This document shows, in pieces, positions 740 to 5,712 of a stretch of DNA of 6,071 bases. Position numbers and translations under genes: made by a program. This DNA comes from a virus. The stretch lies in UHGV virus genome UHGV-0378151. The stretch is one strand, 5' to 3'. The notes beneath the pieces were generated by a model. That model saw nothing but the letters and a program-made list of their open reading frames with translations, did no database searches and was not told the origin of the DNA. Within the stretch, counting starts at the first letter, position 1; each line of letters begins with the position of its first letter.

Positions 740-1210
740 TGGTTCGGCAACATTGTAAGGGAGGACGAAAAAGACAAGGATTTGCCGGAGAAGGTTGCGG
801 CTGAAATCCCCGTAATTATCCGTCGCTTGCTGGCTAATTTTGCCGACCCTGAAAAGGCACGGGCTTTATTACTGGAACAGCGCGACGGTGATGAAGCACT
901 GGCGATAAAGCAACAGACGGATCCGGTTATTGAGTTTTGCCAGTTCCTGAATTTTCTGGAGGAAGCGCGCGGCCTGATGATGGGTGGCGGTGGCGATTCC
1001 GTGAAGTACACGACCAGAAACAGCCTTTACCGCGTCTATCTGGCGTTTATGGCATACGCAGGCAGGAGCAAACCGCTAAACGTGGCTGAGTTCAGCAAGG
1101 CCATGAAGCCAGCGGCAAAAGTTTACGGACATGAATATATTACGCGGAGAGTTAAGGGAGTAACGCAGACCAACGCAATTACAACTGATGATTGTGACGC
1201 GTTTTTATAA
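419..1210 (+). CDS. Primase C-terminal domain ORF; only 741-1210 is primase-like, the first ~108 codons are antisense to the minus-strand ATPase core (likely chimeric or disrupted gene)
   Basis: ORF track 419-1210. From 741 it reads ...NIVREDEKDKDLPEKVAAEIPVIIRRLLANFADPEKARALLLEQRDGDE...DCDAFL, continuing exactly where the minus-strand fragment stops being homologous. No in-frame ATG or GTG exists between 741 and about 975. Iterons follow immediately downstream, as expected after a P4-type primase gene. Confidence 0.55.
   Translation: MCECTFTATALSGGLNKHLPVVPVRHNHVQRGTYTHHLARVFSGCVLKPFMKVWRVIADVLPWCWWRVLNAVVRGDPVLRRVRGKFPRFQVKRTIGERQQIAGRLAHWFGNIVREDEKDKDLPEKVAAEIPVIIRRLLANFADPEKARALLLEQRDGDEALAIKQQTDPVIEFCQFLNFLEEARGLMMGGGGDSVKYTTRNSLYRVYLAFMAYAGRSKPLNVAEFSKAMKPAAKVYGHEYITRRVKGVTQTNAITTDDCDAFL
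741..857. repeat. Right copy of 117-bp inverted repeat
   Basis: Reverse complement matches 1-117 with 2 mismatches; one is synonymous (GTT/GTC Val), one changes Gly to Asp. Confidence 0.9.
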
Positions 1211-1224
1211 TTTTTTGTAAAAGT

Positions 1225-1448
1225 CCTCTACCCCATCCACCTGAATGAAATAAACGCATATTATTCAACATGATAAGTGGGTAGAGGGCTAGGTAGAAGG
1301 CTAATAAAACCTCTCTACCTCTTCTACCATGATTAAGATCGTTTGTGAGGGGCGGGTAGAGGATGGGTAGAGGGCCACGAAAGCCCTCTACCCATCTGAA
1401 AGCCGCGCCATTACTGACATGAAAGATGATTAGGTAGAGAGGTAGAGG
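1225..1448. repeat. Iteron array, putative origin of replication
   Basis: About 10 copies of GGTAGAGG or near variants in both orientations: direct at 1280, 1292, 1355, 1366, 1433, 1441; inverted CCTCTACC at 1225, 1312, 1321, 1385. Includes an inverted pair GGGTAGAGGGC / GCCCTCTACCC at 1365-1393. Non-coding, directly after the primase stop at 1210. Confidence 0.7.
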
Positions 1449-1496
1449 AGGTGCACCACAACCTAAAACTTTTTAAACACGAGAGTAAAAATAAAA

Positions 1497-1775
1497 ATGC
1501 ACACATCAGGAAGATTTAACAAATCACTCAAAAAACGCAAAGACAGAACAGCACCAAGATATAAAGCGCTGGAGATGACAGAGCACGCCTTAAAGGTGGC
1601 TATAAAGGTGATAGACATCACAGCGGGAGAAGGATACTCGAAAGCACATCCCGAACTAATAAGCGCATTCATGACCACGGCGGCGGCAAACTTTGCCACG
1701 CTGACAGAGCGGGAGATTGCAGAAGCGGAACAGGTAACAACCATCAACGTTAAAACCGGAGAGCAGACAGCATGA
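1497..1775 (+). CDS. Hypothetical 92-aa protein, translationally coupled to downstream SSB
   Basis: ORF track. Its TGA stop (1773-1775) overlaps the ATG (1772-1774) of the next gene as ATGA. No family recognised. Confidence 0.5.
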   Translation: MHTSGRFNKSLKKRKDRTAPRYKALEMTEHALKVAIKVIDITAGEGYSKAHPELISAFMTTAAANFATLTEREIAEAEQVTTINVKTGEQTA

Positions 1776-2182
1776 CAGCACAGATAGCGGCTTACGGGCG
1801 GCTGGTGGACGACCCGCAGGTAAAACAGACCAGCAAGGGCACACCAATGACGCTGGCACGTATGGCGGTATCGTTGCCATGTAGTCAGGCGCAGGATGGG
1901 CAGGCTACGTTATGGCTATCGGTGATGGCATTTGGTAAGCAGGCCGACTTCCTGGCTAAACATCAAAAAGGCGACGTTGCCAGCGTATCCGGCACGATGC
2001 AGGTCAGCCAGTGGACCGGACAGAACGGGGAAACGCGGCAGGGTTATCAGGTTATTGCAGACAGCGTAATCAGTGCCCGTGCGGCACGTCCTGGCGGGAA
2101 CAGACGCAAAACCACAGGCACACAGGGTAATCAGCCACCAGCGGGAGGCGATGACCCTTACGGTGATGATATTCCGTTCTGA
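1772..2182 (+). CDS. Short single-stranded DNA-binding protein (SSB family)
   Basis: 136 aa. N-terminal OB-fold pattern resembling E. coli SSB (YGRLVDDPQVK...WLSVMAFGKQADFLAKHQKGDVASVSGTMQVSQWTGQNGETR), a Gly/Pro/Gln-rich linker, and the characteristic acidic C-terminal tip DDIPF. Confidence 0.8.
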   Translation: MTAQIAAYGRLVDDPQVKQTSKGTPMTLARMAVSLPCSQAQDGQATLWLSVMAFGKQADFLAKHQKGDVASVSGTMQVSQWTGQNGETRQGYQVIADSVISARAARPGGNRRKTTGTQGNQPPAGGDDPYGDDIPF

Positions 2183-2192
2183 GGGGGTGAGG

Positions 2193-2465
2193 ATGGTACA
2201 TGACCGCATAGCGGAGGAACTCGAGGCAAAAGGCTTTTACCGGAGGGCGGCGGCACGATGGGGTGAAGTCATGCAGCTGGTGGAGACAGACAAGGAACGG
2301 CATCAGGTTACGATGCGACGGCTGGAATGTTCCAGGAAGGCACAGAGGCCACCGGAGCCGCCGGATAACTTCGGAGACCTGAGAAAGGCAGTCGATCGCA
2401 CTTATGCTGAAATGGGTATAGATGGTGTAAGCGATGAAATATGGCGTAATTACCCAGGCAGCTAA
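2193..2465 (+). CDS. PerC-family-like small transcriptional regulator
   Basis: MVHDRIAEELEAKGFYRRAAARWGEVM... resembles the conserved N-terminal motif of PerC/Pch-type regulators as I remember it. Start taken at ATG 2193, preceded by GAGGGGG (2181-2187). The track start at 2073 would overlap the SSB 3' end in another frame. Confidence 0.55.
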   Translation: MVHDRIAEELEAKGFYRRAAARWGEVMQLVETDKERHQVTMRRLECSRKAQRPPEPPDNFGDLRKAVDRTYAEMGIDGVSDEIWRNYPGS

Positions 2466-2471
2466 TCAACA

Positions 2472-2493
2472 GCCGGAGTAATCCGGCTTTTTT
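2472..2493 (+). terminator. Rho-independent terminator
   Basis: GCCGGA-GTAA-TCCGGC hairpin followed by a run of 6 T, 7 nt after the stop at 2463-2465. Confidence 0.7.
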
Positions 2494-2505
2494 GTACCCA
2501 AAAAA

Positions 2506-2542
2506 AGCCCGATAAGTACAGGAGGCATCTTATCGGGCTTTT
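2506..2542. terminator. Second hairpin terminator, possibly bidirectional
   Basis: Perfect 11-bp stem AGCCCGATAAG (2506-2516) / CTTATCGGGCT (2529-2539) with a 12-nt loop, an A7 run upstream and T-run downstream. Confidence 0.55.
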
Positions 2543-2621
2543 GCATATGAGGTTTTTTTTGGCGCACTGACACACATGATCGGGATCATCATTTCATAAT
2601 TTGCAACACAACTCAACATCA

Positions 2622-2670
2622 TTGCATAAAATGCAATCATGATTATAATCAGATCTGGATGAACATCCAG
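2622..2670 (+). promoter_or_regulatory. Putative sigma70-type promoter with overlapping palindromic operator-like sites, upstream of the capsid operon
   Basis: TTGCAT (2622-2627), 16-bp spacer, TATAAT (2644-2649). Palindromes: TTGCAT-AAA-ATGCAA (2622-2636), perfect 12-bp TGATTATAATCA (2640-2651) over the -10, and CTGGATG-AA-CATCCAG (2655-2670) near the predicted start. SD AAGAGGA at 2689-2695 before ATG 2706. Confidence 0.45.
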
Positions 2671-2705
2671 TTATGATTTTTTAAGTCAAAGAGGAATTTC
2701 TTACT

Positions 2706-2912
2706 ATGGCTGAAGAGAAAAAAGGCGGTGTTTCGGTGTACATAAGCCCCGACATCGTGAAGGCGCTCAAGGAACGCCACCAGCAGAACGTAAAAGCAGG
2801 CATTGCGGCAGGACTTGATCCGCTGGCGATGGTTGAGCCGTCAACAGGCTGGCAGGTACGCGCCTATTTACGCGCGGCGCTGGGTATGAATCAGGTTCAC
2901 GGGGGTGAATAA
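2706..2912 (+). CDS. Hypothetical 68-aa protein, first gene of capsid operon (possible ribbon-helix-helix fold)
   Basis: ORF track. Its TAA stop overlaps the capsid gene ATG as TAATG at 2910-2914. The segment VSVYISPDIVKALKERHQQ has a strand-then-helix pattern, but this is only a guess. Confidence 0.5.
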   Translation: MAEEKKGGVSVYISPDIVKALKERHQQNVKAGIAAGLDPLAMVEPSTGWQVRAYLRAALGMNQVHGGE

Positions 2913-3967
2913 TGACAGTAAAAGCAATATCACTTAACACTAACCAGCTTTTTGCGTACCTGAATCGCGAGGATATTGCGGAATTTAAATTCAGTCCGCT
3001 GTTTACCGCGCTGTTTTTCCCGAACGTGGCGACATTCAACACACAGGACATCATGTTAGATAACCTGGATATTGAAGAAGTCACTATGTCGGCGTTTTGT
3101 TCGCCTATGGTGGGTAGCCAGGTTCAGCGCGATAAAGGGTACGAAACAAGCATTATTCGCCCTGGCTACATGAAGCCAAAACACGAAATCGATCCATTAA
3201 AAACAATAATGCGCATGGCTGGAGAAGATCCAGCACAGCTTAACGACCCTACCTACCGCCGTATGCGCCTGATTACTGGCAACATGCGCCGCCAGATAAA
3301 CGCCATTAAAGCGCGCGTGGAATGGCTGGCGGTAAATGCGGTAACGACCGGAAAAAACATCATTGAGGGCGAAGGCATAGAGCGCTATGAAATCGACTGG
3401 AAGATACCGGAAAAAAACATCATAGAGCAGGCCGACGGTAAAAAATGGTCAGAGCAGGACAAAGACATACACGACCCAATCTATGACATTGAGCTATACG
3501 CAGATCAGGCAGGTTGCCCCGCAAACGTCATGATTATGGGCGTTGATGTATGGCGCATGTTACGCAGCTTTAAAAAATTCCGTGAACTGTACGATCTCTC
3601 CCGTGGTTCAGAATCCGCCGCAGAGCTGGCATGTAAAAACCTGGGAGAAGTGGTGAGCTTTAAAGGCTATCTTGGTGATCTGGCCCTTATCGTCTATTCC
3701 GGCAAATACACTGACAGCGACGGCACAGAAAAATATTTCCTTGAGCCTGATTTGCTGGTCCTGGGCAACACCAACAATAAAGGGCTGGTGGCCTATGGTG
3801 CGATTATGGAACAGGAAGCGGTAAGAACGGGCGCAACGCAAAACATGTTTTACCCGAAAAACTGGATTGAAGACGGCGATCCGGCGATTGAGTACGTGCA
3901 GACACACAGCGCACCGCAGCCTGTTCCGGCAGATATTCGCAAATTTGTTACCGTCAAAATTGGTTAA
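2912..3967 (+). CDS. Major capsid protein, lambda gpE family
   Basis: 351 aa, colinear with lambda gpE as I recall it: FKFSPLF..LFF, RPGYMKPKHEIDP, EDPAQLNDPTYRRMRLI, WRMLRSFK, SFKGYLGDLALIVYSGKY, LVLGNT, YPKNWIEDGDPA, and a SAP...KI C-terminus. Similar length to gpE (341 aa). Confidence 0.9.
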   Translation: MTVKAISLNTNQLFAYLNREDIAEFKFSPLFTALFFPNVATFNTQDIMLDNLDIEEVTMSAFCSPMVGSQVQRDKGYETSIIRPGYMKPKHEIDPLKTIMRMAGEDPAQLNDPTYRRMRLITGNMRRQINAIKARVEWLAVNAVTTGKNIIEGEGIERYEIDWKIPEKNIIEQADGKKWSEQDKDIHDPIYDIELYADQAGCPANVMIMGVDVWRMLRSFKKFRELYDLSRGSESAAELACKNLGEVVSFKGYLGDLALIVYSGKYTDSDGTEKYFLEPDLLVLGNTNNKGLVAYGAIMEQEAVRTGATQNMFYPKNWIEDGDPAIEYVQTHSAPQPVPADIRKFVTVKIG

Positions 3968-3978
3968 CGGTGGATTCT

Positions 3979-4314
3979 ATGAACACTCCATACATTGAGT
4001 TATTTGCAGGCAGTCAGCAGGTATCAACGACGCTGGTACATTTTGCCGCTGATGCTGGCGTTATTCAGGAATTTACCCCGCTGATGCTGGCGGACAATGG
4101 CGAGTTTAAGCCGTGGGATGGTCAGGAATCTGGCAAGGCTGTTTATCTGACCTCGTACCCCGTTGACACGTCGACGCAGAAATCAGCACAGTGCTATAAG
4201 ACGGGGATATTCAATATCGCCGCCGTTAACTGGCCTGAGAGCGTCGACACCGATGCGAAAAAATGCGCCGCCTTTGCGGGTTCTGGCGTATCCGTTCAGC
4301 CGCTGGCCCGATAA
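3979..4314 (+). CDS. Head decoration protein, lambda gpD family
   Basis: TPLMLADNGEFKPWDGQESGKAVYL...CYKTGIFNIAAVNWPESVDTDAKKCAAFAGSGVSV matches lambda gpD [27 protein letters not shown]...[35 protein letters not shown]. ATG 3979 preferred; the in-frame GTG at 3970 used by the track is an alternative. Confidence 0.85.
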   Translation: MNTPYIELFAGSQQVSTTLVHFAADAGVIQEFTPLMLADNGEFKPWDGQESGKAVYLTSYPVDTSTQKSAQCYKTGIFNIAAVNWPESVDTDAKKCAAFAGSGVSVQPLAR

Positions 4315-4326
4315 GCAGGGGGAACG

Positions 4327-4740
4327 ATGGCAACGAATGAAAGCATCATGGCGCTACCGCTGGCGAGTAAATTTAAAGCCGAAGCGCGGGCAATGGCTGA
4401 CAGAGGGTTATCAACCTACGAGGCCGTATATCAACTCAACAAACTGGAAGAACAGGACAAGCCGCGCGCTGATGCGATTATGGCGCTTCATGAACATAAC
4501 GACTATCAGCCGCTGTTACGTGCAATGGCAAACGTGCCATGTATTAGCGTCGATAATGCTCGTGAAATCCTGAACATGACCATAGAGCAGGAGCGCCCAA
4601 AGGTTGCACCAGAGCTTACCGCAGCCTTTGAAAACTTTATGGACATGCACAGCCCGCAAGCCGTATCAGCTGGCATGGCATACGATGGCAGAAACCAGGG
4701 CGATGACGGCGACATCGATCACATACTGAAAACCATCTGA
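4327..4740 (+). CDS. Hypothetical 137-aa acidic protein, positioned where lambda has FI after the capsid gene
   Basis: ORF track. SD AGGGGGA at 4316-4322. No recognisable similarity to lambda FI or any other family; the functional guess is positional only. Confidence 0.5.
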   Translation: MATNESIMALPLASKFKAEARAMADRGLSTYEAVYQLNKLEEQDKPRADAIMALHEHNDYQPLLRAMANVPCISVDNAREILNMTIEQERPKVAPELTAAFENFMDMHSPQAVSAGMAYDGRNQGDDGDIDHILKTI

Positions 4741-4745
4741 GACAA

Positions 4746-4770
4746 GGCCGGAGAAATCCGGCTTTTTTTT
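4746..4770 (+). terminator. Rho-independent terminator
   Basis: GGCCGGA-GAAA-TCCGGC hairpin followed by T8, directly after the stop at 4738-4740. Near-identical to the hairpin at 2472-2493. Confidence 0.75.
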
Positions 4771-4947
4771 ACGGGTCCTTTCCGGCATATGGACCCGTTA
4801 CGGGGCGGCGACCTCGCGGTTTTTCGCTATTTATGAGCCTTTTCAGGGGGGTGGTGGTGGTTTTGTTGTTTGATCTATCTTTATGAATGAAAAGGGAAAG
4901 ATGCAAGCAATACACCAACCTGAAGCAGTAATTAAGTTGGTGTATTA
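4771..4947 (+). other. cos site 1 (plus orientation): lambda-type cosQ and cosN with a divergent cosB
   Basis: ACGGGTCCTTTCCGG...TTACG / GGGCGGCGACCT / CGCGG-TTTTTCGCTATTTATGA is almost base-for-base the lambda right-end/left-end junction as I recall it. The 12-nt cohesive-end sequence GGGCGGCGACCT is at 4803-4814. Downstream of about 4835 it no longer resembles lambda cosB. A perfect 9-bp inverted repeat TACACCAAC (4911-4919) / GTTGGTGTA (4936-4944) ends 3 nt before the ATG. Confidence 0.8.
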
Positions 4948-5490
4948 ATGAAATCTCATCTGATGAACAAAAAAAACATGGCGAAAAGCTGCCGTGTAAG
5001 TGCGACAGCGTTCGACAAGTGGGGAGTAACTCCCGTTGAGCGTAAAGGCCGTGAGGCGTTTTATGATGTTGCCAGCGTGATAGAAAATAGGGTTAACAAT
5101 GCAATTAGCCAGCTTATAAACGACAAAGGCGAGATTGACGATGATGAACTTTTACGAGTCAGGATCAGATTACTGACAGCACAGGCAGAGGCGCAGGAAC
5201 TTAAAAACGATCGCGATCGCGGTGACGTGATTGATACTGAGTTTTGCCTGTACGCGCTTTCAAAGCTGGCGAGTCAGATTTCATCAATCATGGACAGCCT
5301 CCCGCTTACTATGCAAAGGAGCTTCCCACAGATTACCCCCGCCATGCTGGATAGGCTTAAAAGGGAAGTGGTTAAAGCCTGTAATGCCAGTGCCAGAGTT
5401 GCCGACAACCTCCCACAGATACTGGCTGATTACTTGAAAGAAACAACCGGAAACGTACCGGAAAAGTTGCTACAGAAGAAAGGCGAGTAA
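4948..5490 (+). CDS. Terminase small subunit, lambda Nu1 family
   Basis: Colinear with lambda Nu1: N-terminal region (KSCRVSATAFDKWGV vs ADIFGASIRTIQNWQEQGM) and strongly in the C-terminal half (LTAQAEAQELKNDRDRGDVIDTEFCLYALSKLASQISSIMDSLPLTMQRSFP vs LTRAQADAQELKNARDSAEVVETAFCTFVLSRIAGEIASILDGLPLSVQRRFP). Alternative start at ATG 4963. Confidence 0.9.
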   Translation: MKSHLMNKKNMAKSCRVSATAFDKWGVTPVERKGREAFYDVASVIENRVNNAISQLINDKGEIDDDELLRVRIRLLTAQAEAQELKNDRDRGDVIDTEFCLYALSKLASQISSIMDSLPLTMQRSFPQITPAMLDRLKREVVKACNASARVADNLPQILADYLKETTGNVPEKLLQKKGE

Positions 5491-5712
5491 CAGACGCGCA
5501 ATTATTGAACAAAACTGAGAAACGACATGAAAGCGTCATAAATCGCCATTTTAGATGATTACCGTGTCGTTTCTTTTTATTGTGTATCTATTTAAAAACA
5601 AATAGTTATGTTCGAGAAGTACCGACATGCTTTTTCCAGAAAAATTTTCATAAACAGATAAAAACCGCGAGGTCGCCGCCCCGTAACGGGCCATAATTCC
5701 AGGAAGGACCCG
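5491..5712 (-). other. cos site 2 (minus orientation): lambda-type cosQ-cosN plus lambda-like cosB
   Basis: Reverse complement of 5661-5712 reads CGGGTCCTTCCTGG...CCCGTTACGGGGCGGCGACCTCGCGGTTTT, with a perfect match of about 30 bp to cos1 (4794-4823). Continuing on the minus strand, TTTATGAAAATTTTC, CATAACT and the inverted GAAACGACA (5519-5527) / TGTCGTTTC (5565-5573) motifs track lambda cosB closely. Complement of the cohesive-end 12-mer is at 5670-5681. Confidence 0.8.

Follow-up and report, generated by a model that had tools for sequence, protein, structure and literature searches.

Two-strand iteron array with a conserved 21-nt core: almost certainly the origin at which an EcCICFT073-type E. 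coli PICI replicates

Replication origins of E. coli PICIs are formed by iteron sets that flank an AT-rich region and are found immediately 3' of the pri-rep gene (Fillol-Salom 2018, PMC6092414). The pri-ori segment of EcCICFT073 maintains a plasmid, and this maintenance is abolished in the absence of pri and reduced in the absence of ori (PMC6092414). The EcCICFT073 initiator has 584 aa and is followed by a gap of 288 bp. In SaPIs, the Rep proteins are self-loading helicases, which bind iterons located directly downstream of rep by a C-terminal winged helix (PMC9371898). The satellite P4 has, according to its record, ten 8-bp "ori type 1 repeats" with the sequence TGTTCACC, which are distributed on both strands over 300 bp directly 3' of the alpha gene and form crr, while the P4 ori is a separate cluster placed about 2 kb away, on the other (upstream) side of alpha.

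The DNA analysed here, the 6,071-nt virus genome UHGV-0378151 (the window), is an EcCICFT073-type E. coli PICI, a phage-satellite island and so a known kind of element. Its genes encode, in this order, the C-terminal part of the initiator (named as a DNA primase family protein), a 92-aa protein, an SSB, a PerC regulator and then the capsid and packaging proteins, which are a lambda gpE-like capsid protein, a gpD-like decoration protein and a Nu1-like small terminase. The 92-aa protein (1497-1775, + strand), which has no family match, and the SSB (1772-2182, + strand; Pfam SSB, 4.8e-17) make part of the replication module, both being encoded downstream of the array. Islands matching the window from position 741 onward are found in 2,205 of 5,426 complete E. 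coli genomes, with a median of 2 and a maximum of 13 matching places per genome, and the annotated relatives have an integrase and an AlpA-like regulator and are located at fixed chromosomal sites. Members of the cf-PICI group are defined by their own portal, protease or scaffold, and large terminase; of such a capsid and packaging set, the window and its relatives carry only the gpE-like, gpD-like and Nu1-like genes. The island L003, which is 99.8% identical to window positions 741-4836, encodes an integrase and an HTH regulator and adjoins a tRNA-Pro gene; these integrase and regulator parts lie outside the window. EcCICFT073, whose coordinates were taken from the supplement of its paper (PMC6092414), has the same layout as L003, with integrase, regulator, operon and chromosomal site.

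Two near-duplicate hairpins followed by a T-run, GCCGGAG(T/A)AATCCGGCTTTTTT, are 92% identical and found at 2472-2497, after perC, and at 4747-4772, after a 137-aa ORF; they look like intrinsic terminators that would divide the operon of the island. The Nu1-like small terminase gene (4948-5490) is flanked by a 72-nt inverted repeat (82%) with arms at 4772-4843 and 5641-5712, and each arm contains the 12-mer GGGCGGCGACCT (4803-4814, + strand, and 5670-5681, - strand), which we take to be the sequence of the lambda cohesive ends. In L003 the DNA enclosed by the two arms is missing, and EcCICFT073 has a 144-aa ORF in its place. The supplement of the EcCICFT073 paper mentions two cos sites, cos1 and cos2 (PMC6092414).

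The array is located in a 286-bp non-coding gap between the stop codon of the upstream ORF (1208-1210) and the start of the next ORF (1497). The motif GGTAGAGG has six exact matches in the window, on both strands and all within 1225-1448, while 0.09 are expected on average by chance, and six were reached in none of 200 dinucleotide-preserving shuffles. When one mismatch is allowed, there are 13 matches against 2.7 expected, a count also reached in 0 of 200 shuffles, and ten of these 13 lie in 1225-1448, again on both strands. Iteron 1 (1225-1232, - strand, exact) is separated from iterons 2 (1280-1287, + strand, exact) and 3 (1292-1299, + strand, GGTAGAAG, one mismatch) by an AT-rich spacer (1233-1279), a candidate unwinding region in which the 25-nt stretch at 1244 has 80% A+T. 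These are followed by iterons 4 (1312-1319, - strand, GGTAGAGA) and 5 (1321-1328, - strand, GGTAGAAG), both with one mismatch, by the exact iterons 6 (1355-1362, + strand), 7 (1366-1373, + strand) and 8 (1385-1392, - strand), and by the abutting iterons 9 (GGTAGAGA, 1433, + strand) and 10 (GGTAGAGG, 1441, + strand), which occupy 1433-1448. Iterons 7 and 8 are placed head-to-head and form the left and right halves of a perfect palindrome at 1365-1393, GGGTAGAGGGC (1365-1375)-CACGAAA-GCCCTCTACCC (1383-1393), with 11-bp arms and a 7-nt spacer. The right flank of the array (1455-1496) is also AT-rich, with the least stable 30-mers at 1464-1470, and is a second candidate unwinding region, which holds in addition the ribosome-binding region of the next gene. 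The original prediction, made from the letters of the window, had described a dense array of about ten repeats in both orientations, an 11-bp-armed palindrome, a non-coding location and a motif different from the P4 iteron, and all these points are borne out, the last one by the P4 record, which gives TGTTCACC, the P4 iteron that the prediction had named, where the window has GGTAGAGG.

The same prediction placed the array immediately after the primase gene, which holds for the C-terminal 155 codons (743-1210, + strand; Pfam Pox_D5, 4.1e-5) and fails for the whole gene, since this is not intact in the window. The initiator segment of the window is 99.8% identical to L003, in which the gene is intact (L003:7252-9000), and the intact homologue, WP_151329572, matches the D5_N, DUF5906 and Pox_D5 models of Pfam. 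Residues 486-574 of this homologue match PDB 1KA8, the origin-binding domain of P4 alpha (phmmer, E=5.6e-6), and by this homology an origin-binding winged-helix domain is assigned to about 917-1183 (+ strand) of the window. The helicase part matches the structure of SaPI5 PriRep5 (7OLA, 1.4e-15). A structural model of the initiator C-terminus has 1KA8 as its top Foldseek match (probability 0.97, TM-score 0.48-0.55) and as its sole credible structural neighbour; as the model has only moderate confidence (mean pLDDT 65), it was used for secondary-structure placement and for no further inference on DNA contacts. Pfam detects a zinc ribbon and a TOPRIM primase domain in P4 alpha and neither of them in the intact PICI homologue, whose residues 1-150 have no Pfam match. 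Since the PICI protein lacks both primase domains, "primase" may be a misnomer, and the protein may be an initiator-helicase devoid of primase activity; it probably works like the P4 and SaPI initiator-helicases and is not a full member of the P4 alpha family. Homologue searches gave mostly fragments, and three apparently diverged initiator homologues (P0010-P0012) turned out to be frameshifted assemblies and not real variants. A profile search of genome contigs with the initiator alignment gave at least one locus, in Shigella.

The initiator gene is not intact in the window because positions 1-750 carry, in reverse complement, the helicase-domain segment of a gene of this kind. This segment corresponds to L003 7898-8647 with 97.7% identity, and the inverted fragment (1-740, - strand) encodes D5_N (3.1e-9) and the DUF5906 helicase domain (6.3e-11) with the Walker A motif GEGGSGKS. 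Positions 1-117 and 741-857 form an inverted repeat of 117 nt with 98% identity. Identity to L003 is 99.83% in the forward piece and only 97.7% in the inverted one, so the two stem from different alleles. The join at 740/741 results from a rearrangement between two islands that is specific to the strain, or else from chimeric assembly. The origin as such is undamaged in this copy, which, should the join be real, would depend on an initiator provided in trans. The array could then be an orphan origin in a rearranged and defective island, silent unless a related island in the same cell supplies the matching initiator, a reading that agrees with the split and partly reversed gene, with the two alleles and with the several matching places that E. 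coli genomes hold. The junction, however, is spanned in 0 of 5,426 complete E. coli genomes, its 37-mer is absent from IMG/VR, and the gene index contains neither the fused ORF (419-1210) nor the version of it with an internal start. The join also sits on a short stretch common to both pieces (741-750), a pattern that is typical of chimeric assembly as well, and on this balance the orphan state is rather unlikely, while still deserving consideration.

The array is almost certainly the replication origin of this EcCICFT073-type PICI, a reading that draws on position, architecture and homology to an origin of proven function. The first iteron starts at 1225, after the stop codon at 1208-1210, so the array is directly 3' of the initiator gene as in the described PICI origins. 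The order of elements, with iteron 1, the AT-rich stretch 1233-1279, iterons 2-10 and the second AT-rich stretch 1455-1496, also agrees with them, the left iteron "set" of the window being one clear copy. The gap aligns position-for-position with the pri-ori gap of EcCICFT073, 8-9 of the ten aligned positions being occupied by iterons, and all syntenic relatives that were examined have the array. A satellite origin bound by the primase C-terminus, which the original prediction expected at this place, is supported by position, architecture and homology, and the conservation of the repeat in homologous elements, which was proposed there as a check, gave no refutation. A counterpoint comes from the published EcCICFT073 test, in which deletion of ori left some colonies (PMC6092414).

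The array resembles P4 crr in its position, repeat length and repeat number, and since the P4 cluster directly 3' of alpha is crr and the P4 ori is separate, the array could instead be a cis-acting replication enhancer, with the true origin elsewhere in the island. The whole islands L003 and L004, however, have no second iteron cluster, and in EcCICFT073 the pri-ori segment was by itself sufficient for a plasmid to be maintained (PMC6092414), which makes an enhancer of this type improbable. Slightly less probable still is a function of the repeats as operators of the downstream genes (those of the 92-aa protein, SSB and PerC), for example by roadblock or autoregulation, and no function as origin. 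The array is upstream of these genes, iteron-binding initiators often double as repressors, and the P1 RepA iterons overlap the repA promoter according to the annotation of its record. Against this, no sigma-70-like promoter and no terminator were predicted in a scan of 1100-1600, the array is downstream and not upstream of the initiator gene, its homologue is a tested origin, and Gram-negative PICIs are described as unidirectionally transcribed (PMC6092414). Chance or low-complexity sequence, or a structured RNA to which the palindrome could contribute a hairpin, is effectively refuted by the shuffles and the comparative data, as iteron positions are conserved while the iteron sequence changes, Rfam gave only far-below-threshold matches over the array region and no T-tract follows the hairpin.

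With the array taken as origin, replication would begin when the island is induced and the initiator acts at the array. The initiator would be a helicase of the SF3/D5 type whose C-terminus forms a P4-alpha-type winged-helix domain for origin binding, and this domain would bind the ten 8-bp iterons, probably as dimers on the head-to-head pairs. The protein would then assemble on DNA, open one of the adjacent AT-rich stretches (1233-1279 or 1455-1496) and self-load to serve as the replicative helicase. An origin-initiator specificity allele would be constituted by the two 3'-terminal bases of the iteron, which are GG here and CA or TA in EcCICFT073, together with initiator residues 542, 543 and 545. 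The locus as a whole is very probably explained by an EcCICFT073-type PICI origin with a winged-helix SF3/D5 initiator, a specificity allele made of iteron and residues, and an initiator-independent core.

The specificity allele is suggested by about 200 related loci, which were collected from IMG/VR at first by a conserved 21-mer and then, without that bias, by the initiator protein. The relatives have two iteron classes, GGTAGAnG (n = G/A/T), to which the window belongs, and GGTAGAyA (y = C/T), to which EcCICFT073 belongs. The class tracks residues 542, 543 and 545, which are A/E(or D)/S in the first case and N/D/G in the second, with one exception in 79 protein-selected loci and with r2 0.90-0.95, and no other residue of the binding domain does so. 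The codons for residues 542-545 (A-E-F-S; N-D-F-G in EcCICFT073) are at 1085-1096 (+ strand). Among 78 distinct 2.85-kb segments, r2 with the iteron class exceeds 0.9 only within window positions 1084-1448, while it reaches at most 0.38 upstream of 1050 and at most 0.61 downstream of 1450, where it drops under 0.4 by 1600. Iterons and binding-domain tip thus move as one cassette of about 370 bp in a recombining background. This pairing fits the distinct primase-origin specificities put forward in the original prediction, and the co-variation could alternatively come from tight physical linkage of one diverged 370-bp segment and not from selection.

The exception, a locus retrieved as both L039 and L167 (IMG/VR contig 3300029303_000153), has A-E-F-S residues together with GGTAGAyA iterons. 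It may have arisen by natural recombination and have a relaxed or mismatched specificity, or the metagenome contig may be chimeric. More distant relatives agree with the pairing in part: diverged relatives from Klebsiella, Pantoea and Morganella have Gly545 with iterons ending in YA, and a further diverged element has Ser545 with a third iteron, GTAGGGAT. In the moderate-confidence model, residues 542-545 are at the N-terminus of helix 2, before the beta-hairpin wing, so that the co-varying residues would belong to helix 2, outside both the wing and helix 3 and away from the surface that classically serves in recognition. In Morganella morganii GCA_003287815.1, two contigs (L225 and L226) carry copies of the same truncated P4-type binding-domain gene, which share the left half of a GGTAGATAAC iteron array and then diverge completely, with no core in either; these copies appear to have broken inside the origin. 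The coupling of three residues to the 3' half of the iteron in a cassette of about 370 bp offers a simple code for origin-initiator specificity, which could explain how several related islands replicate separately in one genome.

A conserved 21-nt origin core, CTGAAAGCCGCGCCATTACTG, is located inside the array between iterons 8 and 9 (1396-1416, + strand). It is identical to EcCICFT073 at 21 of 21 positions, while the rest of the gap is 55-72% identical, and it is exact in 60 of the 79 protein-selected relatives. The sequence CATTACTG is invariant in 78 of the 79, the core of the remaining one not being found in the 300 bases searched, and the wider consensus of 21-27 bp is cgCTGaAaGCCGCGCCATTACTGGgct. 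The core is also present in the diverged PICI-like origins of Klebsiella and Pantoea. The same 21-mer occurs in the middle of iteron arrays of unrelated sequence within the O-type replication genes of lambdoid phages (CUS-3, Stx2a phages and Sf6), where the Sf6 record annotates the region as a putative rep_origin, and it adjoins the 22-bp iterons of a Rep_3 initiator. A second scan of IMG/VR found it inside several further repeat arrays, on contigs with 42-60% G+C, and one of these copies is 143 nt downstream of a 754-aa ORF that is primase-helicase-like as judged by eye alone. Full-text literature searches with 13-18-mers of the core gave no paper.

The P1 oriR carries a related element, TTGCAGGCCGCGCCACGTCTGGCTT, between its Dam-methylated heptamers and the RepA iterons, and has GCCGCGCCA...CTGG in common with the core consensus; TTGCAGGCCGCGCCACGTCTGG, at this same place, is the G+C-rich stretch of P1. 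In the P1-like phage SJ46, the core variant CTGTAAGCCGCGCCATTTCTGG occupies the interval between GATC heptamers and RepA iterons. In the fetched loci, 31 distinct 32-nt contexts match GCCGCGCCA-NNN-CTGG, which A-class relatives, SJ46 and P1 match exactly and the window (GCCGCGCCATTACTGA) matches at 15 of 16 positions, with ...CTGA for ...CTGG. The core and the G+C-rich stretch of P1 oriR are most likely one and the same element. Brendler, Abeles and Austin reportedly found in 1991 that the length of the P1 stretch is critical and its sequence tolerant, and are said to have suggested a clamp, and this tolerance sits oddly with the conservation seen here. The role of G+C-rich flanks of origin unwinding regions, for which the 1991 study is cited, remains unclear according to a 2016 review (PMC5043065). 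The distance between the PICI core and the AT-rich stretch that begins at 1455 is 39 nt, and the orientation of the core relative to AT-rich DNA varies between replicons. The core may position or limit strand opening by acting as a spacer or clamp, or be a site for a shared host factor. The broader reading, in which the core is a sequence-specific and initiator-independent origin element, the same as the P1 oriR stretch and common to P4-alpha-type, lambda-O-type, Rep_3 and P1 RepA replicons, is a tentative one, with a reasonable chance of being right although short of an even one. If it is true, exact conservation over hosts of 42-60% G+C would point to a common host factor or to a precise DNA geometry, and not to a mere spacer.

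Several known sites were considered for the core by eye, and none of DnaA, IHF, LexA, dif/Xer, Ter, sigma-54 and sigma-32 sites or a tRNA arm fits. A role at the RNA level is unlikely, because the core is not oriented in the same way to transcription in PICIs and in O genes. Exact or nearly exact copies are also found away from obvious iterons or an initiator, in L217, L044, L098, L093, Salmonella phage YSD1 (448-472) and Pectobacterium phage Taid (30-57), and are placed between small- and large-terminase genes, after lysis genes, or less than 500 bases from a genome end; these are either unrecognised origins or a second use of the core.

The array is a new allele of an already described kind of PICI origin, so it changes little in itself and its own interest is modest. 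The parts worth following are the linkage between the binding-domain tip and the iteron class and, above all, the cross-family core. Conservation of the core at the sequence level over at least four unrelated initiators bears on the open question about G+C-rich flanks (PMC5043065), and the core is a defined sequence that can be mutated in several well-studied replicons.

Among the described systems, EcCICFT073 shares with the window the initiator, a gap of 286-288 bp (286 bp in the window), the small ORF and the SSB, PerC, capsid and decoration genes in the same order, as well as the GGTAGA iteron core at aligned positions and the central 21-nt block. They differ in the iteron 3' half, which is CA or TA in EcCICFT073 and GG, AG or GA in the window, in residues 542, 543 and 545, which are N-D-G in EcCICFT073 and A-E-S in the window, and in the initiator gene, which is interrupted in the window. 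The gap is 63% identical, whereas the flanking genes are more than 90% identical.

P4 alpha has a homologous C-terminal origin-binding domain (1KA8) and the D5_N, DUF5906 and Pox_D5 models in common with the PICI initiator, and P4 also has 8-bp iterons on both strands in a cluster directly 3' of the initiator gene, which is its crr. In contrast with the PICI, which has one cluster in the whole islands L003 and L004, P4 has two (ori and crr); its type 1 iteron is another sequence, its alpha protein has the zinc-ribbon and TOPRIM domains that the PICI protein lacks, and P4 has no 21-nt core. SaPIs resemble the window in having ori directly 3' of the initiator-helicase gene, with opposed iterons on both sides of an AT-rich stretch (PMC9371898), and the PICI helicase domain matches that of PriRep5 (7OLA); the PICI protein may be self-loading as well. 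They differ in their iterons of 5-6 nt, in their Gram-positive hosts and in that no conserved G+C-rich core is described for them.

The putative O-gene origins of lambdoid phages (Sf6 gene 43, HK620, CUS-3 and Stx2a) have, like the PICI origin, two iteron sets that flank the core and AT-rich DNA on one side. Their iterons (ATGTGCGG or GGTTCATCG) are unrelated to that of the window, the origin lies within the coding sequence of the initiator, and this initiator is a Phage_rep_O protein with an adjacent DnaB-like helicase gene. P1 uses an initiator of another family, and its G+C-rich stretch is placed between heptamers and iterons, while the PICI core is placed between two groups of iterons.
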